Notes: generated by a model not told the origin, from the letters alone. Positions 5,001-52,424 are shown, counted from the whole stretch's first letter. The stretch: DNA of 52,424 nucleotides, filler included, from Bipalium vagum (GCA_037834085.1; 3 parts of 3 records of this genome joined end to end with filler, not necessarily neighbours in it), one strand, 5' to 3'. Made by a program: numbers and translations.

Positions 5001-5199
5001 TTTTTATACTCAAAAATATTAATGTATTTTTATATAAAATTATATTGTAAATCCACTAAAAATTTCTAGAATAGATCAAGATATATAAAAAACACTTAAT
5101 GCGCGCCTAAATAGACAAGCAGAAAGAAATACACGAATATTATAATATTTATGTAACACAGCAATCAAATTAAACAGGTTTTATTTTTCTATATAGTTA

Positions 5200-5415
5200 C
5201 CATATACAAAAAAATTTCCGCCAACAAGCACCCAAATCTCAGAAAACAAATTAATAAAACTTTTGAGGTTTTTTAAAATCCCCATCACTAAATTCCTCAT
5301 TTCTGCATTTGAAGCAATTTGTTAACCTATCAAGTTTGTCTTTAGGAATTTGAAATTTCATAAATCTGATGGAGCGAAATCTGGACTGTACGCTGGATAT
5401 CAAAGAACTTCAAAC
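5200..5415 (-). mobile_element. mariner transposase C-terminal fragment
   Basis: Reverse strand EVL*YPAYSPDFAPSDL corresponds to the YSPDLAPSD signature. Confidence 0.8.
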
Positions 5416-6045
5416 GCCTGGAAGAAACCAATAGCGAATCTAATGAGTAATTTGTCACACCACAAATAGGGTAAACAAAAAGAAGCGGGAAGTATTATTA
5501 ATTTAAAGAAAAAACAGAAACGTGAATTTATATTCTCGTTCTATAAAAATTTTTATATTTAGAATTGTGAATCTAATAATAATTTGTTGAGTTATGATAA
5601 ACTGAATTCTCTAATAATTGTTGGGCTTTGAGATGGTTGGGTATTATTTTTTTGTAAAGGTAGTGTACCAATCACAATTAAAAAGAGTTTGTCTAAAAAT
5701 TTTCTAATTCTTTTTTTTCAAATTTTATTTTTATGATAATGTACAAACTATGATTTTTACAATAAAATTTGTGATCGAATGCCAATCTTTTATATTTTAA
5801 GCAATTCAATCTGCACTAGGAAGGTTGCAGATGTTCAAAGAAAACAATAGCGAATCTATCAACTAATTTGTCAGATCGTAAGTGGTAGAAACTAAAACAA
5901 AAAGAAGCTGAAAAAATTAATAAGTTGAAGAAAAACAGAAACGTGAAATAATAATATCCCCATTCTGGAAAATTTTTAATCAATTAATTTTTTTATGTAA
6001 TCTAATAATTCAATTACAATTCTTAAGAGTTATAATAAACAGAAT
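5410..6045. repeat. diverged direct repeat, two copies of about 200 bp (about 5410-5610 and 5834-6045)
   Basis: Shared colinear blocks caatagcgaatcta, taatttgtca, aaacaaaaagaagc, aagaaaaa(a)cagaaacgtgaa, aatctaataat, gagttat-ataaac-gaat. Confidence 0.75.
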
Positions 6046-7340
6046 AATTTTAAGTTTTAATATTAGTTATTAAAAATTAATCTTGCAACTTTTTTTAAAC
6101 GGTGAAATTATGACTTGTGTCGCTCTATTTATACTGTTTTTTAGATGTTTTTATTTTGAAGTCATTCATTTATTTTTGTTATTACTTTACACTATTGCTG
6201 TTTTACTAATGTCACTGATGTTTCAAAATTTCCTCCTTACTTATTAGTTGTTTTATACCCTGTTATTATTTTTTTAATATTCAAAATGTATATATTTCGG
6301 AATTTTCATTATTATATTTATTTTATTCAATCTTTTGTTATTTCTTTTTGTTGTCGTTATTTTATTTGATTTAATATATTTCTTATTGTTATTAAGGTTT
6401 TTCATAAAGCCCTATTTATTAGGTCATAAGACTTCAGATAACATTATTTATTTTTTTATTTCTTTATTTACCTTATCTTATTATTTTTTTATATTACAGT
6501 TTTAGACAAAATCATCTATAGGTAAAATTTTATAATAAAAAATTTTATTATAAAATAAAATAAAAATTGTTTTCAATCACTAATGAATTTTAATAAAATC
6601 GAAATCACAAATAATTGATTTTTTGTAACATTGACAATTGATTGAGTTGACCTGATGTTCAGTTGAATTGACTTTTGGTAGTTTTTTTTTAGTAATTGGT
6701 TGCTTTTTAGGTAATCTCACATAATAAATTTTTATTATTGTAAACTAAGCTTTATAAATTAATTCTTAAACTAATTTTTTAAGGAACCTATTTTAAGAAC
6801 CTCTTTACAATATTTTTTTAATATGTATTTCTATTGTCGTCATTTTCATATTTTTATTATTAATTATTTATAATTTTTAATAGTAATCATTATTTTTTTT
6901 TGTTTTATTCTTAGATTCACAGGATCTCCGAATCCTATAATGATTTTATTTATTTGACTTTATATTTTAGGTTCACTTATTCATGAACACCCACAATTAA
7001 AGATTTATTTTATTATTATTTTCTTTTAGGTGCTCCTCATTCCACGGCTTCCCTAATCCTGATCATCCAAATGACAGCATAAGATTTTTTATTAAATTTA
7101 TTATTATATCATTATTTAATTTTATTACTTTTATTCTATTAGAAAAAAATTAATCATTTGATGAATTAGTCATAATTTTTATAATTTAGTCTTAAATCAT
7201 AAAAGAAATTCCTAATTTTAACCACTTCAAAATCATAAATGAATTTTTATTATAGTCTCAGGAATCCCAAGGATCCGACCATCGGTAATGTTATTGATTG
7301 TGTTTATTTTATTACATGATCACTGAGTCCATCATAAGTA

Positions 7341-7526: not shown

Positions 7527-8560
7527 ATGAAGGATCAAGGATCACCTGATACTTCACTACAAAAATATAAAGAAACAAACATCCACAAAGCTTGCCATAC
7601 AGAGATGCTTTGGTTTATCAAAAATTCAGGATTGAAGACAATAAATACAACAGTCCCAAAACAATTCCCAAAGCGACCAAATTCAAGGAATGTGGAAACA
7701 GACAGAGATAGATGTTTTATTTTAAACAACATCCATGGTATATAAAAAAGATAAAATACCAGAAATGAACAATCAAAAACTACAAGAAAATTTATACATT
7801 CATAATATTATTCTTTCCATTCGGCTACACATCGGAGAAGTCGATACGGCTATCAACATGAGCAAGGAAGAAAGCCTGAAAGCCTGAAAGCCTTCCAACT
7901 AAAAGAACGAGCCAAACATATTTGCATATAGATATTACAGCCAGGAAGTGTCCTATCAATAGAAGTTTGCGAACATGAAACTCCATCAGTACTCCGCAAG
8001 AAGCCCATTAATTCCTACACCAGATAATAATGGTGAAACCTTCATAATAAACCCCTCCAATAACATCTCACAGATCACCACATCTAAAGATGCTAAAACC
8101 AATACAACTCATCTAGTGAATGTAACTCTGATGCGCCTCTCCGCAAAAATAATAATCAACTCAATCACACCTAGAAAAAGACTCCTCAAAATAAATACTT
8201 CTCAATTCGGACTAAGCGAAAAAGACATAATAAATCAATATGATGAAATACAGTGTAAAAAGGATTTGAGAGAAATATTAAGAGGAAAATTTTTAGTTTT
8301 TTAGTTAATACCATGCGAAATTCCATTTTTCATTTTAAGTGAAATCAGAAACAGCATCATGTCCATATCTACAATCAATCGGGGCATATGGTCAAAAACG
8401 CTTGGCTACAGTTTCCAAGGCAGTCTACGCGAAAGCAGTTCGTGACTGTTTCCTCAAAAGCGAAAAAGATGCTCGTATAATCAGAGAAATATATCGATCC
8501 ATATATAAAAATCGCATCCACAAGCCAAGAAAAAGAACCCATGCCACTGCAAGCAATTAG
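7527..8560 (+). pseudogene. decayed coding region of unknown protein; 3' part weakly DUF4806/BEN-like
   Basis: Higher-complexity broken ORFs (7527-7745, 7975-8304, 8339-8560). The segment SIGAYGQKRLATVSKAVYAKAVRDCF...IIREIYRSIYKNR resembles DUF4806/BEN helices by eye only. Confidence 0.3.
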
Positions 8561-9562
8561 ACCAATCCAACCAACGGCACCAGCAACCAAAGCAGACTAA
8601 ATATTAAACTTAGAGAATAATATAGATGATGATGAAACAACAAAATAAATTCAAAGAACAAAATATATTATTTTTATATTTTTCTGAAGCGAAAACACTC
8701 ATTTTGTCAAACAAACCTCATTGATTTGACTCATTTGACTTTATATGCAATTTCAATATTCTCAATGGGTTTATCGAAAAAATAAAATTTACTAAGAACA
8801 AGAAAAGTGAAATTTGTTAATGATAGCAAAAAATATCGAAAAAATTTTAAAAAACGTAAAATTGGAAGACAATGTAAAAGAATAAAATAGAATAGTAAAG
8901 AAAGGAATAAGACTTCAGATAACCTATAAACGAATTGAATAGATAAACTGATGTAAGAGAAGAGGTTTTCGAGAGTTGCCAAAAGGAAATATGAAAATTA
9001 CTGATCTGTAAGATTTTTTATTAATGAGTGGTATTTATTTTAAATTATAAATATTAAATAAAACAATATATTAAAATATTTGATCAGTATAAAGCCATTG
9101 TGAAAATAAATGTACTATAATCAAAGAAGTTTTCTTATAACGAAACGACAGATGATATTAATGTAGCTAACAATAATAAAAGAGCAATGTGATGTACCAA
9201 TCAGTAAACCATACGTTAGATTAACCTCAACTAGGAAGTTCTAAGAATTTGATATAGAAAATATAGAAAAAAAAAAGAAATATAGAAAAAAAGGTGAAGA
9301 AAAGCTCAACAAAATAGGAAAATGTTAATGTTAAAGATTAACTTCAAATCACCACTGAATCATCGTACAAAAATAATCATATAATCGTATAAGTTATTTT
9401 GTTTCATTAATGAAATTGATAATACCATTTAATGACGAAATCCATCATGTGTATGTACTATTTGGTTATCATCATTAAAAATTTCGAAGCACATATGTCT
9501 TATTCGTTCTTTGTGACATTTTTAATGACAGTATTTTTTTAGATTGCAAAAAAACATTACCC

Positions 9563-10561
9563 ATGGAATATCAAGTTTTGTGTAAAATTAGATCAAAGTG
9601 CTACCGAAAGATTGCAGATGATTAAAACTGTTTATTGTAAAGATGCCTCGAGTCTCGAAAAAAATGTATAAAAAAGTATTCAGAATTTCGAGATGGATAA
9701 GAGAGTATTCAAGATAATCCTTCCTGTGGCCCAACGATTTGTGGCCCAATGTACAAAAGCATCTGAGATTCTCAGAAAAGATATATATTTATCTATCAGA
9801 GTTATTAAGAAAATCAATAATATTCCCAGGACAACTGTACATCGCATTTTAACAGAAAACTTTGGAAAAAAGATTATTGTGATTACTACTATTTTTAAAA
9901 ATTCGTAATATCATAATCTTGTTTAGTCATTTACATACTACTTACATATTTAATCAATATAATAAATAATTACAGATTTAACTGAACAATCATTATAAAT
10001 TTTAATCTATAAAAATTGAAAATTACAAAAATTAACCAATATTTAACCAGAAAACTTATATTAATTGAGATGACAAGAACTACTGATTTAGATCAATAAT
10101 TCATTAGAATGATTGAAAAGCTGGAAAAACATTAAGTAAGGAATGGATTTCTCCAGATGATCAAAGACCGAAAAAAGAACGCATTCAAAAAGGAGTCAAG
10201 TCAAACATTGTTAACAGTTTTCTTCGATTCAAAAGGTATCATCCATAAAGAATTTGTCCCAGACAGTCAGACACATAAGCCGAAAACTATGTTGTCATGC
10301 ATGTATTGACAAATATTGAAAAAAGTAAATCGAAAACATCAGAACACAAAATAGGACATCCAAATGACACTCGTAACCGAGGTTTAGAGACATTTCTAAA
10401 GAGAATTTCCAGCATTGTTTTGAAATATTTTATAATCACATCCAAAGCTTTTTTGAATCTAAAGGAATGCATTTTGAATAAATTTGTTTAAACATGTTTT
10501 CATATTTTAATAGTTGTTTTTATTTCACACCAGTCACCTTTCTCATAGGACAGACCATGTA
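9563..10561 (+). mobile_element. decayed mariner (irritans-like) element
   Basis: Motifs IKFCVKLDQSATERLQMIKTVY, NIPRTTVHRILTENFGKK, EWISPDDQRPKK, TLLTVFFDSKGIIHKEFVPDSQT. The right end reverse-complements to a TACATGGTCTGTCC-type TIR. Confidence 0.8.
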
Positions 10562-11460
10562 TAAATTAAACATAATTTCATAATAATAATAATAAAACGC
10601 CGTGTGATATATAAAAGGAAGATGCAGAGAGATATAATAAGACTAAAAAATAGGTGATGTTTGTTAAGAAATTTTTGTAGACTTCAATCCAGATTTCTTC
10701 AGATTACGCTTGCATATATAAAAAGAATGATTATAAAAATAGAAATAATCAAATTTATTTCAAAATTTTAAATATGATAAATATTCAAAACGATAGATTA
10801 ATAAATATCAATTTTATAAAATATATTAATTTAATCATTTACTATTAATTATTAATTGAATAATTATTTTTATATATTATTAAGTAAATGACTAAAAATC
10901 AAACTAATAGACTTATCAATTTAAAAACAAAATAAGTCGATTAACAAGTTTTATATAAAATATATTGATTTTCTAAAATTAATCGATTATTATTAAGTTT
11001 TAATCAATATTTATTAATTTCAAAATATTTATTTTTTCTCTAAGCTGATTTTCTAGTTGTACCAATCGATAATTTCAAAAATCTCAATGATCAACCAAAA
11101 TTGAAGCATAATTTTGAAAAAATTAAGAGGTATAGTGAAATCACTGTAAATTATTGACAATCTACACATTAGTTTTATAAAAAATGATAAAAATCTGACA
11201 TACCAGATGCATTAAATCCATATGAAAAATTTTTCAATTTTCGTAAATTATTCTATCCAGATTGCGTTAGTCTTTCATTGAATAAATCTAAAAACGTAAT
11301 TAATCTTAATCAATGTTACAAAATTTAAATGCCAATCAAAATTCAAAATATATTTTCAAACAAAATATAAACATTTTAAGTAATATTTTTCAAAATATCA
11401 AAAATAAAAGTTGAAACATTTATTGAAAATATTTTATTTAATAAAACTGAGATTCATAAG

Positions 11461-11583
11461 CTAAAGTTTTTGGGAATCGGTATCGCTTAAATGACCTCGT
11501 ATTCTTGGTGGTGCAACTGGTGTTTCGACAGCTAGGTCATTTCTTGAACGAGCTAATGAACTACCTGTTTTAGATGCTTTGAT
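11461..11583 (-). CDS. probable terminal coding exon, likely the Pro-rich tail of the BAR-RhoGAP gene
   Basis: AG acceptor, then 41 codons IKASKTGSSLARSRNDLAVETPVAPPRIRGHLSDTDSQKL*, with AATAAA about 25 nt downstream. PxxPPR motif. Linkage to the RhoGAP crosses a gap and is inferred. Confidence 0.5.
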   Translation of the reverse strand: MKASKTGSSLARSRNDLAVETPVAPPRIRGHLSDTDSQKL

Positions 11584-13023
11584 CTTAGATAGATAATTTA
11601 GAAATGAAAATATGGAAAAAGATTCATTTTTAATTTTCATTAGACCAATTATAGATCTATAGAGATTAAAGTTATACCAAATTTCACAGGATATTACCGA
11701 AAAACTTCTTTACTCATTGGAACTCCTGCACTTATAGTTAAATTATATAATAGCATATCAATTTCGGTCAGATCGTTCCTGTTCATTCTATTTTAAAATT
11801 TTACTAAAAATTGAAATAATAAAACAAATAATTAATAAACAAAGACTTAAATATTAAATAACTTAAATTATTTAATGTCTTAAATTAAATTGATAAAATA
11901 ATTGAGTAAATATTCTTAAAATTTAAAAATGATTTGGAAGATTTTGATAATATTATGAAAAAAAATTGTTGTGTTCTTTCAATATTAACTAATAGCAAAA
12001 TCGATAATAAATATTTTCAAAAAATGAAATTTTCATATTTTTCAATTTTAGAGAAAATTAACTTCAATATCAAAATTAATAATACTTAAAAATATTTTTA
12101 AGGGTAATAAATATTAAAATTTCATTATCTTATATTTGATAATCATACACTTCTAGAGGTTTTACCCTGACATTAAAATAATCTTACGTATTAGTTACTC
12201 AAGTCATATTTTACTCCAAAACTCTTGGTCTGTCAAAATCGCAACTTTCGCTTGTACTCAAAAGGTATTCATTAATTTTTTATTAACCCTTTACTTATCG
12301 CTTATTTATACTTGCTTCGTTTATTTATTTATATTTGTATTATGTTGATCACACAATTTATTACATTGCTATATACACTTACTCCAATAATTATCCGTAG
12401 GATTATATATAAATTAACAAAGTTTTCATAGGATTTCTAAATATATTTCTGAATTTATTATTTAAAAGATTCCAAAGACAAAAGAATACTCCGCAGACAC
12501 CTGAAATCTCGTTGTTACATTGAGAAAAGAAAAAAATCAAGCATCCAGTATATTTTGGAAAAGTTTTCTCGTGATAGTAGCGTAAAAACTATTACTGGGC
12601 CAGGAAGACCAATAACAATTAAAGAAGATAGAAAAAATCAAAGAATTCTGGGAAAATGTTTATGTTTATTATCTCAATTAATTAATTTTAAAAAACGTTG
12701 AAAAAGAGGTTATTTTTAAGTCCGCTCAGAGCATAATTAGGATGAAAAATTGAAATTCAAACACAGAAAACTTCTTAAAGTTAAAATATAACAAATCAAA
12801 AATCAATATTTCCAAATTGTAATTCTTAACACAAAAGCAATACTGTTCTAAATAGGATTAAATTTTAATTGGCTTTTGAGAGTTTCTGGTTATTTAATTA
12901 ATTCCTTAAATTCTTTCTTGATCCTAAAAAGAGCTTATTTTTACACATTTTACAAATTAAATTAAAAATTATTATAATTGTAATATTGTAATTAGAACAC
13001 AATAATTTAAAATGACATACTAA

Positions 13024-13108
13024 ACACAAAGGGGATCCCGTTTGTACCCCTTTTTCCTATCCCATTCGTTCTTCAAAAACGTGTTTACAAATAAGATCCC
13101 CTTTGTGT
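13024..13108. repeat. perfect 14-bp inverted repeat (hairpin) upstream of pPolB
   Basis: acacaaaggggatc (13024-13037) and gatcccctttgtgt (13095-13108), 57-nt spacer. Confidence 0.85.
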
Positions 13109-13239
13109 GTCACATAGAATATAAATTTTTTTCATACACATAAAATATACAAAAAATCAAAAAATCAAAAAAATAATAAAAAAAAATCAAAAAATATTAA
13201 AAAATCAAAAATTAAAATTTTTTATTTTTCTTTAAAAAA

Positions 13240-13869
13240 ATGGCAAGCGAAAATAATAATAATCTAAAAAAGATAGCAAACCCAGAATTTAATATTGATG
13301 AATGGCAAGCTATAAATAAAAACTTACCTTTTGAAAATTGTCTTATTCCAGATAATTTATTTCACGATGATTTTAATCAGACAACCGAAATAGTAGATGG
13401 TAATTTGATTCATTATTTAAATTTTCATTATTAAAAAACATTTTGGTTCAGTTTTTCAATATAAGATTTCACCAGCAGATACAACTTCAAAAAATATTCG
13501 TAGTTGTTTAAATTTTATTTTAGAAACCGTTACAAATGATTCAGATAATTATAGAGTTAAGCTAACACTCTTACATCCTATAATTTATTCAAAACATGGT
13601 TCATTTCCTTTAACAATTAAAGATAATGTAATTAATTTATTATATTCCAAATTAGAAAATTTTTTAAAATCCGCTGAAGAAATAAATGTTGAAGACGTAA
13701 CTTTTGAATTTTTAATAATACCAATACTTCAAGGAAAGGGAAAAATTATATTAATTATAGTGTTAATAATTCTACAAATTTAATATTACAAGCTTTTGCA
13801 AAAAATTCTATTAATATAATTCAAAATAATGATACACTTTGTTTGGCTAGGGCAATAGTAACTTCTTTA
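13240..13869 (+). pseudogene. N-terminal region of Polinton-type protein-primed DNA polymerase B, frameshifted and truncated
   Basis: MASENNN... continues across two frameshifts to ...FLIIPILQGKG...KNSINIIQNNDTLCLARAIVTSL. IxNxDxLCLARAIV is characteristic of the N-terminal part of Polinton/adintovirus pPolB. Confidence 0.7.
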
Positions 13870-14584
13870 ACTTCTTTTTTATATTTTTTAATTTCTATTT
13901 TTATAAATTTATTAGATTCTAAATTTTCCAATCTTTTATTTTTAATAGTTAAGTTTGTATAGTTCTTTTGTAAATAATTATATTCGGCTTGATAATTATT
14001 TAATTTTTCTTGCATAATTTTATAATATTTGCCAATATCTTTTTTATTCTTTTCTTCGCTCTCTTTTATAATCAGAATTTCTGTGTTTAGTTTTTTTATT
14101 TTATCAAAATTTTTATCGTGAATATCACAGACAATTTTTTCTTATTTTTGATTTTGATTTTTTAAATTAGTAATTTTTGTATTCTGATTTTCCCAACATT
14201 TTTTATAATGATTTGTTTCATTTTTTATTTCTCTTATTTTTTCAAATAATTCTTTTTTTTCATTATTTAATATCAAATTTTTTTCATTTTTTTCAAAAAA
14301 TATTTTGTTTTTTTTGATCCGGCTTTTTAAAATAAATCTTCTTTCATCTCATTCTTCTTCTTCTTCTTATCCTCATCCTCGTCCTCGTTTTTATCCTTCT
14401 TCATATCACCCTTTGGAGAATCTTTCAACTCATTCTTCATCTCATCCTCATCCTTCCTCATCTCATCTTTTGGAGGAGTAGGAAGAAGAGAGTTATTTAA
14501 ATGCACTTGAGTTTTTTCATGTCTAGCTTAATTTGATTTTAAAATATATTTTTGATAGTATTCACAATAATAATTATCACGCAT
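13870..14584 (-). pseudogene. viral accessory ORF: degenerate C2H2-like Zn finger, D/E/K low-complexity tract, coiled coil
   Basis: MRDNYYCEYYQKYILKSN*ARHEKTQVHLNN..., then KDEDEMKNE/EDEDEDKKKKK, then heptad-like MQEKLNNYQAEYNYLQKNYTNLTIKNKRLENLE. Confidence 0.55.
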
Positions 14585-14613
14585 TTTTTAATAAAAAAAA
14601 ATAAAAAATGTAA

Positions 14614-14775
14614 CCCATCTAACAACTCTACAATTTAAAAAATATTTCGTAGTATACCTATATATAAAAAAAATATTTGTTTTAAAGATAAAATAATTGG
14701 GGACATTACATATCCCCAACTACAACTCCACAATTTAAAAAATATTTCTTAGTATACCTATACGAAAATAAATTT
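14614..14775. repeat. two-copy direct repeat (about 100-bp spacing) upstream of the Zn-finger ORF
   Basis: acaactctacaatttaaaaaatatttcgtagtatacctata versus acaactccacaatttaaaaaatatttcttagtatacctata. Confidence 0.85.
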
Positions 14776-14995
14776 TTTTTAAAAATGAAAAACAAAAAAA
14801 AATTATAAAAATTTAAAAAATATAAAATTTATAAAAAATTAAAAAAATAAATATATAAAAATTATAAAAATATATTATTTATAAAAATTAAAAAATATAT
14901 TGTTAAAAAATGTTATAAAAATTTAATAATTAATATATAATTTATTAATATTAAAAATTTATAAAAATATAAAACAGAAAAAAAATTCAATCAAT

Positions 14996-16126
14996 CTACT
15001 TCAAATTACTTTTAACTTTTGTTTCAATATTAAATATTTTTCCTGCTTTTAATTTTATTTCCTTAAATTTCTGTTGCAATAAAACAACATTTACTTTTCC
15101 TTTAAAATCTTTATCTTTTAAAATATGTAAAGTTATAACTGCTCCATTTAACAATAAATTTTCTGGTTGGTCTTTCAAATCAAAACAAAATATAGAATAT
15201 AATTTTTGAAATTCTAATAAAGATAATTGAGGATTGGAAGCTTATTTGCAAGCTTTTATATAATTCGAATAAGTTCTATTATTTTTTCCTTTCTCAAATT
15301 GAACAGGGTTTAAAGGATAGTAAGAATTTTTTACTTGTATTCTTAAAGCTTTTATTTTATCTTGATTTTTGTAAATTCAAATTCGGATTCTCTAAATCCA
15401 ATAAAAATATAAATTGGTTTATTTGGAATATTATATAATTGTAAAGTTTGAGTTGTTCCTTCTGTTAAATTTCTTTCTTCACAATGTCTTGATAAAAAAT
15501 TTACACTTATATTTTTTCCATCATCAATTCTAGAAATTAATTTTAATTCACTCTCAGGATTTAATTGTAATTCTGGAATGAATAATTTTAAATCAAGTAA
15601 TTTTATTTTTCCATCTCCGTTTGTTCCATAAAATATTTCTTTATCAATATTTATTTTTCGTGTAAAAGTAAATCCTCCTTGCATATTATATATAACTCCA
15701 TTAAAAATTTGTAAAAATCCAAACTTTAATTTTAAAGGAAATTCATCAAAAAATTTTTTATTTGAATATAATTTTTTTCTTGTTTTAAATCCTTTGTTAT
15801 CTTTATTTGAATCTTCTTTAATTTTATCAGGAACCCAACAAAATTTTTTAATTTTAAAGTTGGATTAGAAAATAAATAAGGAAAAAAGTTTTTTTGTAAT
15901 GTAATGTTTTCACCTGCTTTTATATTTGTTATTTCAATTTCAAAATCTAAAATTGCTTTTGATAAAACCAAAGCATTTGCTATTTGTAAAAAACTAAAAG
16001 TTAAATTTCCATTTTTATTTAAATTTGTTGCTGTTGTTGGATTTAAACAAATTTCTAAATAATCACATTTTTTACTGTTAAATCTTAATGATATGTATTT
16101 TTATCTAAGTTCAAATTATTACTCAT
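14996..16126 (-). pseudogene. double-jelly-roll major capsid protein (hexon-like)
   Basis: About 375 codons across frameshifts and stops: MSNNLNLDK...DYLEICLNPTTATNLNKNGNLTFSF...ENITLQKNFFPYLFSN...KIKLLDLKLFIPELQLNPESELKL...NKPIYIFIGF...RIQVKNSYYP...SIFCFDLKDQPENL. Beta-rich pattern of Polinton/adintovirus MCPs, adjacent to the ATPase. Confidence 0.8.
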
Positions 16127-16165
16127 TTTTTAGAAATAAAATTGATTTTTAAAATATTTTTATTT

Positions 16166-16878
16166 TTAAAATATTTGTAAAGGAATATATAAAAATAATA
16201 ATAAATTCATATGAAAATTATACAAATAATCAAAATCATTTTTCTCTATAAAATGAGCTAACATTTTTGAATATATTTGATTTTTATCATTTTATGAAAT
16301 TTTAAATAAAATTAAAACATTTGTATTATATCTTATACTTCTTAAATGTAAATCAAAAAATGATTGATATAAATAAATTACAAAACATTTATTATGTCTT
16401 CCTCTTGTAAAATACATTTCCATAATAGTTTGATTTTTTCCATTTATTACATCATCAAACATAATTAAATATTTTTTTATTTTATCTAATTTATCAGGAG
16501 GTTGAATTTCATTTGATTTATCACTCAATGTAACTTTTATGGTTTTTCTTTAAATTCAAAATTTTTATTTTCATCAAATTTTTTCTTTTCTTTATTTTTA
16601 AACTTTTCATAAATCTCATTTTTTGATAATCCTAATTTAAAACAATTTTTTATATATTTGAATGCTGGTTGAAGAAAAGCAGTAAAAAAAATAAAAAATA
16701 ATCAAAAAATAATCAAATTTTGAAGAATTTGGAGTTAATAACATTTTATTTAATAATTCGGTTTTTCTGATCCTGAAGGATCAATAATTAACATTCTAAA
16801 TATTGTGGGTAAGTTTTTGTGATTATTAATTTGAATTGCTATATTATCCAAAAAATCTGAACCAGATTTATTATCCAT
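16166..16878 (-). pseudogene. A32/FtsK-HerA-like DNA packaging ATPase
   Basis: Degenerate Walker A FRMLIIDPSGS(G)K(T)ELL, Walker B YLIMFDD, arginine finger FTRGRH, sensor VIYLYQSFF, then IRYNTNVLILFK. Confidence 0.92.
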
Positions 16879-16909
16879 TTTTTAATATTTTTTTGTTAAT
16901 ACTTTTTAG

Positions 16910-17071
16910 TTATACCTGATTTAAGTGTATTGTAAAACAAATTTCTTCATTAAAATCTATTAATTTCTCTTTATCATAAATTATTTTAAATCTAATTTCA
17001 TTAATTTTTTTGTAATCAAAGGAAAATAAATTGGAAATTTTGGTCTTTCAATAATTCTATATCCTTTTCGA
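16910..17071 (-). pseudogene. minor capsid protein (penton) C-terminal part
   Basis: KGYRIIERPKFPIYFPLITKK/INEIRFKIIYDKEKLIDFNEEICFTIHLNQV* matches the penton C-terminal pattern GYxIxExP..IYxP...I..I.I.I.D....IDF..E....LHL. The 5' part is lost in the gap. Confidence 0.75.
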
Positions 17072-17171
17072 NNNNNNNNNNNNNNNNNNNNNNNNNNNNN
17101 NNNNNNNNNNNNNNNTTAATTAATTAANNNNNNNNNNNNNNNNNNNNNNNNNNNNNNNNNNNNNNNNNNNN
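17072..17171. other. assembly gap (100 bp, Ns with TTAATTAATTAA spacer)
   Basis: N runs with a central six-frame-stop linker, identical to the second gap. Confidence 0.98.
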
Positions 17172-19479: not shown

Positions 19480-19628
19480 CAATTAACCGCTCGCATCCAT
19501 TCATCAAACAAATAACTCGTCAAAAGAGGTTCAGGTAAAGATCGTAGATACTGCTTCAAGCAATCAGCAATCACAAAATGATCGTAATATTTGATAATCC
19601 TTTCAACTCTGAAAACATTAAAGGCGCT
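19480..19628 (-). CDS. BAR-RhoGAP (ARHGAP17/44/SH3BP1-like) exon, GAP core
   Basis: cag|SAFNVFRVERIIKYYDHFVIADCLKQYLRSLPEPLLTSYLFDEWMRAVN|gt, containing the LKxYLRxLPEPL signature; in phase with the preceding exon. Confidence 0.92.
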
Positions 19629-19702
19629 CTGAATAGAAATTATTATTTTAAACAATTTCAAAAAATTTATCAGACAAATTTTCAAAACAAGTTTTAACAT
19701 AC

Positions 19703-19750
19703 TGATAGTGTGTCAACTTTATTTTTTCCTCCAGCTATTCTAAACAGGCC
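19703..19750 (-). CDS. BAR-RhoGAP exon with the catalytic arginine finger
   Basis: ttttcag|GLFRIAGGKNKVDTLS|gtatgt; 48 nt, phase 0/0; followed by a 74-nt intron. Confidence 0.93.
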
Positions 19751-20519: not shown

Positions 20520-22003
20520 GTCTAAGCGTGGTCAATCATCTCAAACAATACCAAAAACTGAAAGACATCAGAAGGTCATGTTGTCCATACGGAGGTATAT
20601 CTTGAATACTACAATCACTTCCGATGTTTACTGTCACTAACTCGACAAGTTAATGAAGCAGAAATATCCGGAATTTGTTAATCGTTGACTTTTGTTTTCC
20701 ACCAAAACTACACAAAACCTTTTTTTCTTTCTCAATTCTGAATTCTTAAAGAATAATTCTGGATAATATATTTTATCAAGAACATATTTTGGTGGAAAAA
20801 TTCTTAACAAAGGAGATCAGAATCAAAGAAAATTAATGGTTTGTGTTTGGTGGTATATAAAAGATATTATTCACTGGAAATGCCGGAACGCAATCGAATT
20901 GTCAATATTGACTTATACTGAGTGGCTGATGCAATTGCCAAAAAACGACCAGAATAGAAAAAACCAATGTCTCAGTATAATATTGCTCGATCGCACGTTT
21001 CCAGCACGTGGTGAAAAGCTTTTGCAATTGGGGTGGGAAGTCCTCCTACAACTAAATTATTATCCTGAACTGGCACCAACAGATTATCAAATATTCTGTC
21101 CCTTCCAGAACTATTTGAAAGTTGTATTTAGAGAGACATTTTGGCCAGTAATCTTTTATAACGAGGGCATCAAGGATCGACCCATTCATGTGATGTACAT
21201 GTATGTTTTCCAGCATAATAGTGATTACGCTAATAATTTATATATACCTTTCTTCTACACTGATTCATTGTGTTTTGTTATCAGTAGGGCAACCAAATGA
21301 ATTTTTTGCACTTTTTGCATTATTTATTAAAAATTATAAATGCAATTTTGTTTAAATATTACTAACAAACTCCTTGGTTTCCGCAGATATAATATATCAT
21401 AGAGTAAAATGTACCTGTTCTCATGAATCTTTATAAAGTGAGCTTATTGCCATAAAATATTCATACGGAATTCTCATAGAATTTATTTATTTTTTAGAGG
21501 ATTAAGATAAGTGGATAGCATTTAATTGGATCATCATAAAGAAAATGATTTTGATAAAAATCCAATAAATTTAAAGAAATATCTTAATTCAAGATTAGAA
21601 AATCAAAATGTCTCCAAGCGATTACTCCAATATCATGAAATGTACTTCAATTTCAATTCAAATCGAAAGAGTTTTTCAATGCTAAAAGCCATTCTTCGAT
21701 CTCAGAGATATTTTAAACCAGATAATTTCGAGAATTATTTTATTTCCTATTTTAACGAATTGATTAATACCGATACCTGTGCAGTTGAATAAAATCTTTT
21801 AATCCATATCTAATTTTTAATACAAATTTTTTCTAAATATGTTTTAAATATTTTGCAAAGTAACTACATCATTTTATTAACAGAATAATTTGCATTTTTG
21901 CATTATTCTTAAGGAATTTTGCACTTTTTTCGAAAATCTTTGCATTTTTTTTGATGCCCTAGTTATCAGTAAAAAGTGCAATTACCTTTTTTCCATCTCA
22001 ATA
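20520..22003 (+). mobile_element. decayed mariner (Mos1/Hsmar1-like) catalytic fragments with right TIR, interrupted by a hAT insertion
   Basis: TITSDVYCH*LDKL, KKLMVCVWWYIKDIIHW, LLQLGWEVLLQLNYYPELAPTDYQIFCPFQNYL. Positions 21970-22003 reverse-complement to TATTGAGATGGAAAAAAGGTAATTGCAC, a mariner-type TIR. Confidence 0.85.
21285..21961 (+). mobile_element. non-autonomous hAT element with 8-bp TSD
   Basis: Termini TAGGGCAACCAAA...TTTGATGCCCTA with a perfect TSD GTTATCAG (21277-21284 and 21962-21969). Internal RKSFSMLKAILRSQR resembles the hAT dimerisation ERSFSxLK motif. Confidence 0.9.
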
Positions 22004-27534: not shown

Positions 27535-28004
27535 GGCGGTACGGCTAAAAAGTACTTAGACTCTACCAGAAATAATGAAGATAACTGAACAGAATTTCTA
27601 TTAACAATACATATATATGTATAGGTCTATTTTCTTGACATAGTCACCGTTCATAACGACGCACTTATACCGCCAGATCTAAAATTGGGGATCCAGTCAT
27701 AGATGGTTGACACACACATGGTTTCTTCACCGTATACCCCTTTCAGCTCATTAGTAACTTCCTGTTTGGTAGCTTCCTTCAGTAGTAAAAACCGGATCAC
27801 ACTTCGAAATTCTACATCTTCAAACATTTTTTTGAATTTATCATGTATAGTGGAAACAAAAATTAGAACATATAAACAAATCATATATTTCAAACATACA
27901 TGTATAATATACATTGTATATATAATTATTATTTTATAATCAAAATTTTATTTAAATATATTCATTATTTCTGGTAGTCTAAATATTTTTTGAGCCTTTC
28001 CACT
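27535..28004 (-). mobile_element. internally deleted mariner with both TIRs and TA TSDs
   Basis: MFEDVEFRSVIRFLLLKEATKQEVTNELKGVYGEETMCVSTIYDWIPNFRSG (HTH). Inverted ends ggctaaaaagtacttagact..accagaaataatgaa and ttcattatttctggtagtctaaatattttttgagcc. Confidence 0.85.
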
Positions 28005-34704: not shown

Positions 34705-34828
34705 TAATTATACAATATTATAGATCGGNNNNNNNNNNNNNNNNNNNNNNNNNNNNNNNNNNNNNNNNNNNNTTAATTAATTAANNNNNNNNNNNNNNNN
34801 NNNNNNNNNNNNNNNNNNNNNNNNNNNN

Positions 34829-38847: not shown

Positions 38848-39600
38848 CAGTGTGTTATATAAATAACCGAACTTTTCATTTAAATCATATACTTAAAGTT
38901 TCTTTTGTTTTAACTAATCTTTATTTTAAAATTACATCATTTATCTTTGAAAATCATCGACATTTATTTTATTCAAATTACAGGTTGAATTCTATCTGTA
39001 TTTAAATAAAGTTTTATATCATGCTTATGTCAGATTTACAATGGAAAAAATTGCAAATATTAAATTTTCTTTTAAAATCGGGAAAAAATTTAAAGAGACT
39101 TATGAATTGCTGCAAAGAGTTTATGGTAATGATTGCACATGTTATACACAAGTTTATAAATGGTTTACGCGATTAAAAAATGATCCTGATAGTTTAAATG
39201 ACGATTAAAAGCATGGGCATCCGGATGATGAGAATCGTCCATATTTGTTGGAAAAAGTTCGTGAAATCATTGCTTCTGTTGGTAAAATGACTGTCAGAAT
39301 ATTAACAGAAGAATTAAATACAAGTGTCATTACTATTTGGACAATTTTAACGAAAGATTTTGGTAAAAGAAAGTTTGCTCGCCATGCATTAAATGAATAC
39401 CAAAATAATATTGTAACGTTTTCCTCAATGCTATTGGAAAAAAATTCAGATTATATTGACTTGTAACTATAACTGGTGATGTGACGTGGTGTTTCTAATA
39501 TGATCCACAAATCAAGCGTCAAATTAGTGAATAGAAGTCTAGATGAGCCAAAACCCAACAAATTGCGTTTTCAAAATCAAGAATTAAGACAATCTTATTT
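38848..39600 (+). mobile_element. decayed mariner (irritans-like), 5' half
   Basis: From 39041: MEKIANIKFSFKIGKKFKETYELLQRVYGNDC..TQVYKWF...; later ITGDVTWCF*YDPQIKRQISE* (first catalytic D). Confidence 0.9.
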
Positions 39601-51317: not shown

Positions 51318-52424
51318 TAGGGATGGGTAATAATAACTTCTTATTAATATTATTAAGAAAATTATTAAAAAGAATCTTAATAAGAAATTGATTTATTATT
51401 GGAAATTATTATTAATATGGATATTTCAAAAAAAATAAAAAGAACAAGAAGAAAAAGAAGCATGGTATGGGAATATTTTGTTGAAATAGATTGCCAGTAT
51501 GCCAAATGTAAATTATGCGCAACATTAATTAAAATGAACGGTTACACAAATGGAATGCTTAATCATATAAGTGAATTCGATCCTTTACAAGAAACAAATG
51601 TTGGAAATGAAATCATCCCTAAAGATTGTCCTGAAAAACTTCTTTATCAACTGATGATTGATGAAAACCTGCCTTTTTCCTTTTTAGAAATTTTATTTAT
51701 TCTTTAAATGCAAGTTTTAAAGTTCCGTTCAGAAAGAATTTTACTTCAAATATCTTGCCAAAAATGTTTAACAAGGCAATAGGTAATCTTAGAAATATTT
51801 TAAGTAATGTAGAATCTATTTCGATAACCACGGATACTTGGACATCAATTAATATGGAGTCATACATGTCTCTGACTGTACATTATATTGATCAAAATTT
51901 TAATTTAAACCGCTATCTTCTTGATTTCTTTTACTTCCCGGAGAAACACACTTCACAAAAAATTTATGATAATATTGTAAAAATATTAGAAGAATGGGAG
52001 CTACTTACTAAAAATATAGTAATCATCCACGATAATGCACCTAACATTGTCAAATTAGTTGAAAGGCAATTTCAAGGTAACTTACGTTGTTGTGCTCATT
52101 CATTACAAGTTGTTATTAATCACGCCCTTAAAAATAATAATATACAAAAACTACTTAAACTGTTCCGATCACTTGTATGTCATTTTAAACATAGCTCCAC
52201 CGCCTATGCTAATTTAGAAAAGCAGCAAGAAATTCTCAATTTTCTCAACCATTCACTTATTCAAGACACCCCTTGTTGGAACAGATGTTTGAATATGCTC
52301 CGAAGGTTTATTGAGCAAAAAATGGCAATTTATAATGTTTTGCTTGGACAAAAGAAAATTGATTTAATTACTAAAATTAGTGACGACGACTTTAAAGTTA
52401 TTGATTTAGTTATTAAATACTTGG
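51318..52424 (+). mobile_element. hAT (Ac-group, ZBED1/4-like) transposon, 5' part, frameshifted; continues beyond window
   Basis: TAGGGATG terminus at 51318; BED finger SMVWEYF...AKCKLC...GMLNH; ISITTDTWTS (first D), SYMSLTVHYID, IHDNAPN (second D), RCCAHSLQ, LIQDTPCWN. Confidence 0.93.

Follow-up and report, generated by a model that had tools for sequence, protein, structure and literature searches.

The viral gene pieces at 13024–17071 of the window (the whole stretch of DNA analysed, 52,424 nt with filler included) raise the question of what kind of virus left them, whether they all belonged to one element, and whether any of them could still work. Read in six frames, the minus strand yields parts of four genes: the last (3′) fifth of a penton gene, a gene for an A32-type packaging ATPase, one for a double-jelly-roll major capsid protein (MCP), and a Zn-finger/coiled-coil ORF; the penton, ATPase and MCP pieces are directly adjacent. 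Facing these capsid-module genes from the plus strand is a protein-primed PolB N-terminus of ~200 codons. All five pieces were found where the initial annotation had placed and oriented them, and all five are broken as assembled. The element has a GC content of 19.5%, and the whole window of ~25%. With good probability the locus is what remains of a group 2 Polinton (Polintoviricetes, adintovirus-like), a dead copy that has lost internal parts and is nonfunctional as assembled; such a copy can neither replicate nor make virions, and it likely represents a new lineage, not a new kind of element. Its features are the following.

13024–13108, no strand: perfect 14-bp inverted repeat forming a stem-loop, arms 13024–13037 and 13095–13108.
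13240–13865, plus strand: protein-primed PolB 5′ stub in three frame pieces, with the D1 terminal-protein domain and the first vOTU helix with its Cys.
13866–14584, minus strand: broken Zn-finger ORF with an N-terminal U1-like finger, an acidic/basic low-complexity stretch and a coiled-coil-like end.
14585–14995, no strand: AT-rich spacer carrying a pair of imperfect direct repeats, each of 71 nt.
14996–16126, minus strand: MCP pseudogene in four frame pieces, with one internal stop and ~32 homologue residues lacking a counterpart.
16166–16878, minus strand: A32-type packaging ATPase pseudogene in four frame pieces, with one internal stop and a degenerate Walker A.
16910–17071, minus strand: 3′ end (last ~50 codons) of a single-jelly-roll penton gene in two frame pieces, its 5′ four fifths cut off by the gap.
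17072–17171, no strand: assembly gap, in which a 12-nt linker that has stops in all six frames is set between two runs of 44 N.

The longest open piece of the MCP (15352–15864) matched Pfam PF21738 (DJR-like_dom) with 36 bits, above the curated cut-off, and a full HMMER search with this piece returned 60 proteins at E values up to 0.001; PF21738 was found in 35 of the 36 MCP homologues scanned. The best homologue, P0002 (413 aa), spans 15005–16126 in four frame pieces at 49–63% identity, its residues 96–127 (~32) having no counterpart in the window MCP, and the fragment P0029 is 67–76% identical to the window MCP. The product had been annotated as a double jelly roll, and the natural homologue P0002 folds as one: its AF2 model (pLDDT 88.6) matched in Foldseek the double-jelly-roll capsids of iridovirus, PBCV-1, mavirus, Sputnik and PRD1 at 9–12% identity, and in BFVD adintovirus and MELD entries. 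A word-index search with the MCP piece gave no match among longer proteins, a PDB sequence search with the MCP profile gave nothing significant, and an IMG/VR scan gave no MCP relative. A metagenome scan with six MCPs produced 406 pattern matches, from which 32 loci were confirmed, and the ORFs of these loci, later joined by those of L088, fed the profiles. Judged by its sequence and by the modelled fold of P0002, the window MCP is a Maverick-Polinton-type double-jelly-roll capsid protein; it is not of the virophage or other Polinton-like-virus type, its sequence relatives at 29–63% identity being of Polinton type and virophage MCPs matching by fold only, at 9–12%. One of the loci, L027, carries two tandem PF21738-type MCP paralogues (7718–10825, plus strand) beside an adenain protease and an S74 chaperone-domain protein.

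Similarity of the ATPase ends at 16208, and P0001, a protein carrying PF04665 (37 bits), covers 16208–16857 in register in four frame pieces at 50–73% identity; among 68 candidates it was the one protein matched by the piece 16295–16549 (78% identity on the query piece). The window ATPase is 47% identical to that of L002, and related ATPases were reported from Glomus and Rhizophagus; a PDB sequence search with the ATPase homologue found nothing significant and an IMG/VR scan no ATPase relative. The best matches of the ATPase are Polinton A32 ATPases, and together with the double jelly roll of the MCP homologue they support the proposed Polinton/adintovirus identity. A penton profile built from six sequences picked out the two penton pieces from 2308 window pieces (E 9e-6 and 0.005), the match covering the C-terminal end of the profile, positions 207–258 of 258. 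The modelled L002 penton homologue (pLDDT 78.7) had the mavirus penton as its best fold match (E 4e-11), with the adenovirus penton also alike, and as read from this model the window penton is a mavirus-like single jelly roll.

The finger at 14584 on the minus strand matched zf-U1 weakly (E 0.027) and the finger of the L002 integrase ORF at E 2e-6 among 2508 pieces, and it contains a stop. The coiled-coil part of the ORF had no homologue among the metagenome loci, and neither PLA2 nor integrase was found behind the finger in the window. In L002, a single ORF (5188–6513, minus strand) encodes an rve integrase fused to a PLA2-like domain and a U1-like Zn finger. The direct repeats of the adjoining spacer (14622–14692 and 14722–14792; family D12) lie 100 nt apart and are 80% alike. 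At the other side of the PolB stub, the 14-bp inverted repeat had 2 exact matches against 0.09 expected by chance, and the stem-loop folds with a z of -3.08, one of 200 shuffles folding equally well; the rest of the window contains no partner for it at ≤2 mismatches. This stem-loop is possibly part of the left end of the element.

Identification of the PolB stub relied on profiles. Single-sequence searches for its D1 domain detected nothing, a word-index search with the PolB piece found no match among longer proteins, and IMG/VR scans for the window PolB motif gave 0, 0 and 2 matches, the 2 by chance. A motif scan of genome contigs yielded 38 stretches, 24 of them with the motif in frame, from which 9 were chosen by eye for a polymerase-like upstream domain to make up the profile set and 15 were left out. 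With the motif omitted, the D1 profile ranked window 13421–13780 first of 762 pieces (8.5 bits, E 0.14), with a score above all 2000 shuffles, and with the motif included the PolB profile reached E 5e-4 in the window. Supportively, the spacing from D1 to the motif is 28.7 codons in the window versus 27–32 in 10 of 10. All three long ORFs sharing the vOTU motif of the window are PF03175 polymerases (137–153 bits), which suggests, indirectly by way of these motif-sharing ORFs, that the stub is of the Alpha (PF03175-strong) type, where we infer the mapping of PF03175 scores to the Alpha and Beta classes from the wording of Starrett 2021. The names of the N-terminal domains, a terminal protein followed by the start of a vOTU protease, follow passages of PMC11161782, and the Cys in the motif would be the catalytic Cys of the vOTU. 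The PolB ends at ~13865 inside the vOTU motif with its catalytic core missing, and profiles of both PolB cores found neither exonuclease nor palm domain in the window, be it left or right of the gap. The minus-strand coiled-coil ORF ends at the same junction, head-on to the stub.

Terminal inverted repeats and a 6-bp target-site duplication are hallmarks of Polintons. In this copy neither a terminal inverted repeat pair nor a target-site duplication nor an integrase can be demonstrated, because the gap hides or precedes the right end; at the left there is only the local stem-loop. Profiles for rve integrase, adenain-type protease, pX and PZ had no match among the 2308 window pieces, the element being cut by the deletion and the gap; integrase and protease had not been visible to the first reading either. 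Nor was PLA2 seen in the window, where the element is incomplete and the integrase profile included PLA2-bearing ORFs. The rve integrase was present in the relatives L001, L002, L009, L024 and L088. There is no second copy of the element or of its left end in the window; an identical gap (44 N, 12-nt linker, 44 N) lies at 34729–34828. The damage had been described as a modest number of frameshifts and stops, and these are indeed present, but deletions add to them, most of the PolB is missing and the element is incomplete.

The placement of the capsid module was assessed with a quick MCP tree of 46 rows, which carries SH-aLRT supports only, without bootstrap or named references, which leaves out the shorter fragments among the matches, and in which the window MCP pieces fill 36% and 26% of the columns. 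The window MCP joined P0002 inside an 11-row clade (SH-aLRT 100) with L001, L002 and L003, and the other-class MCPs of L085, L086 and L089, which have no PF21738, grouped apart (SH-aLRT 99–100). L001 and L002 carry PLA2 and rve, and L003 carries pPolB. By this company the capsid module is of the PLA2-linked (group 2 / Mayetiola-class) Polinton type; its nearest kin are metagenome proteins at 50–78% identity, in a comparison outside which stand named reference proteins that may be closer. Polinton-type genes also occurred in contigs of bacterial metagenome-assembled genomes (L085, L086, L088, L089 and L090, from G001, G002, G003 and G005, and L039, L048, L056 and L057), L085, L086 and L088 having near-complete Polinton gene sets, and these are probably contamination of the bins by eukaryote viruses.

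The two nearest MCP relatives with a visible PolB do not share the class suggested for the stub. Both members of the wider MCP clade of the window in which a PolB is visible, L003 (41 bits on PF03175) and L019, have one of the other class. L088 shares the PolB motif class of the window and sits in the sister MCP clade on a long branch. This mismatch between the PolB and MCP classes gives weak support to a replicase swap or a two-element chimera. In the latter case, ~13865 would be the meeting point of two Polintons, one with an Alpha PolB contributing its left end and one with the other PolB class contributing its capsid module; nested insertion or recombination would have joined them, and decay would have followed. 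Both ORFs stop at this one junction, and since two MCP relatives have the other PolB class while L088 stands in the sister clade, a chimera fits this part of the evidence as well as a single element does. We nevertheless consider two elements unlikely: GC3 is equally very low on both sides (0.08 in the PolB versus 0.04–0.10 in the capsid pieces), the PolB reads inward from a start that is ~215 nt away from the left stem-loop, an arrangement shared with L088, the class contrast comes from n=2 relatives with the L088 branch long, and replicase swaps within single elements are described in passages of PMC10748475 and bioRxiv 2026.10.13.758929. For the reading as a dead group 2 Polinton speak also the persistent coding-type composition of the viral pieces (GC1 and GC2 >> GC3) and L088 itself, a natural element that couples the PolB motif class of the window with PLA2, rve, A32, penton and a PF21738 MCP; against it stand the weak D1 match (E 0.14), the empty single-sequence searches and the PolB class of the two MCP relatives.

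If the single-element reading is taken further, the locus may, quite tentatively, preserve a group 2 lineage that is very AT-rich, uncatalogued and so far met as metagenome fragments only, in which an Alpha-type PolB was swapped onto an MCP subclade whose other visible members have the divergent PolB class. If true, this would tie an environmental lineage to a host genome and would document that one main PolB class replaced the other inside a single capsid clade. Exchange of replicases among Polintons is known, with both swapped classes within group 2 according to passages of PMC10748475.

The genomic surroundings bear on integration, host and age. Two flanking features are the following.

10190–10345, plus strand: decayed mariner transposase piece (PF01359, E 2e-4, 21.6 bits, below the cut-off of 24).
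19480–19750, minus strand: RhoGAP gene in two exons with a 94-nt GT-AG intron (PF00620, 38 bits), beyond the gap.

No gap separates the mariner relic at ~10190 from the viral genes, and integration is therefore supported. Mariner (Mos1-type) relics occur at 9560–10345 (plus), 20767–21300 (plus), 27654–27947 (minus) and 38951–39205 (plus), with Pfam HTH_48 above the cut-off at 27654 and 38951 and Transposase_1 below the cut-off at the other two. At 51384–52424 (plus), a BED zinc finger (PF02892) is followed by a frame open to the end of the window, whose product is likely a hAT-type transposase. A GC-richer, exon-like open stretch at 11461–11600 (minus) with a Pro-rich motif and no Pfam match is possibly a host exon, and 12453–12701, which had no Pfam match, has at most a Tc1-like look. 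Both RhoGAP splice acceptors have TTTTCAG as their last bases; the remainder of the domain was not found, a search for further RhoGAP exons in the window had no clear result, and a position of the element inside a RhoGAP intron is not claimed. The RhoGAP exons, Mos1-type HTH domains, BED finger and mariner relic, read partly through the distribution of mariner elements among hosts, suggest an invertebrate genome. An animal host, as first proposed, is likely, and a fungal one is a lesser possibility in view of the related ATPases reported from Glomus and Rhizophagus.

For the age of the copy, 4 of 37 invariant residues differ in the MCP versus 2–11 of 45–54 in intact relatives left out in turn, and 4 of 24 in the ATPase versus 1–5 of 27–31 in intact relatives (one distant ATPase having 28 of 54). 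Because so few invariant residues have changed (8 of 61, no more than in intact relatives) and codon-position GC in the viral pieces is still of the coding type, these sequences suggest a young relic, in place of the moderately old insertion first supposed. The mutational signature rests on too few sites to read (8 changes, 3 of them GC-to-AT transitions). Many frame changes beside so few substitutions, 17 A/T runs of ≥6 per kb in the region and a gap directly adjoining the element would also be expected if the organism carried a mostly unbroken element and homopolymer errors or an assembly misjoin accounted for the majority of the breaks. Some frameshifts could indeed be assembly errors, but homopolymer slips do not account for the in-frame stops in the MCP, ATPase and Zn finger, the degenerate Walker A, the ~32-codon MCP loss or the missing PolB core, and for the stops, the internal loss and the missing core such an origin is unlikely; an intact element is accordingly very improbable. 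Least probable of all is that the host kept one piece, such as the Zn-finger ORF or the stem-loop, for its own function: the stem-loop arms are perfect amid broken surroundings, but no viral frame is open beyond 170 codons and the Zn-finger ORF has a stop within its finger. Among sequencing runs, two share 0.35 and 0.08 of the words and no RNA run is listed, matches that carry no weight in these readings.

The dead single Polinton copy thus remains the preferred reading, and a history can be proposed for it. By analogy with its family, the parent virus would have had linear DNA that was copied by a TP-vOTU-PolB, packed by the ATPase into an MCP/penton capsid and inserted by an rve integrase, an integrase of the kind found in the relatives L001, L002, L009 and L088. 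A group 2 Polinton likely integrated fairly recently in the germ line of its host, probably an invertebrate, and presumably did so through its integrase. A later deletion would have removed the PolB core and probably neighbouring genes, and the same deletion would have left the PolB stub and the Zn-finger ORF abutting head-on near 13865; small indels, stops and the ~32-codon loss may then have disabled the capsid module, and the copy would since have decayed neutrally, likely without function.

Endogenous Polintons are widespread in invertebrates, passages of PMC10748475 giving 20,702 pPolB1 homologues in 960 genomes, and degraded adintoviruses have been reported from the germlines of many animals (PMC8502044); one more dead copy therefore changes little, and by itself it would neither surprise a specialist nor open a long-standing question. 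What it offers is a link to a host genome for a capsid lineage that is otherwise represented, among the closest members found here, by metagenome sequences throughout; it may also add one case to the replicase-capsid mosaicism that has been described before.

Among known systems, the closest are the group 2 Maverick-Polintons or Alpha adintoviruses of the Mayetiola class, placed in Polintoviricetes and Eupolintoviridae (the current family name according to passages of PMC12451622; formerly Adintoviridae), which, as far as passages of PMC8502044, PMC12451622 and bioRxiv 2026.06.19.733378 describe them, have a PF21738 MCP, a penton and an A32 ATPase like the window. Their PolB has a TP and vOTU N-terminus and belongs to the PF03175-strong class, as the window stub may do. 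Group 2 relatives carry PLA2, pX and rve, whereas the window copy is broken and has no PolB core, integrase, protease, PLA2 or pX. Gene order and orientation in L001–L003 are unlike those of the window; in L002 other genes separate the penton, ATPase and MCP, which in the window are directly adjacent, and the N-terminal Zn finger common to both heads a PLA2-integrase ORF in L002 but a low-complexity coiled coil in the window. The adintovirus relic on human chromosome 7 (PMC8502044) is, like the window copy, a germ-line element with pseudogenised hexon and PolB, but it is described as Beta class and highly disrupted, whereas the window has a group 2-type capsid module of high similarity to intact relatives.
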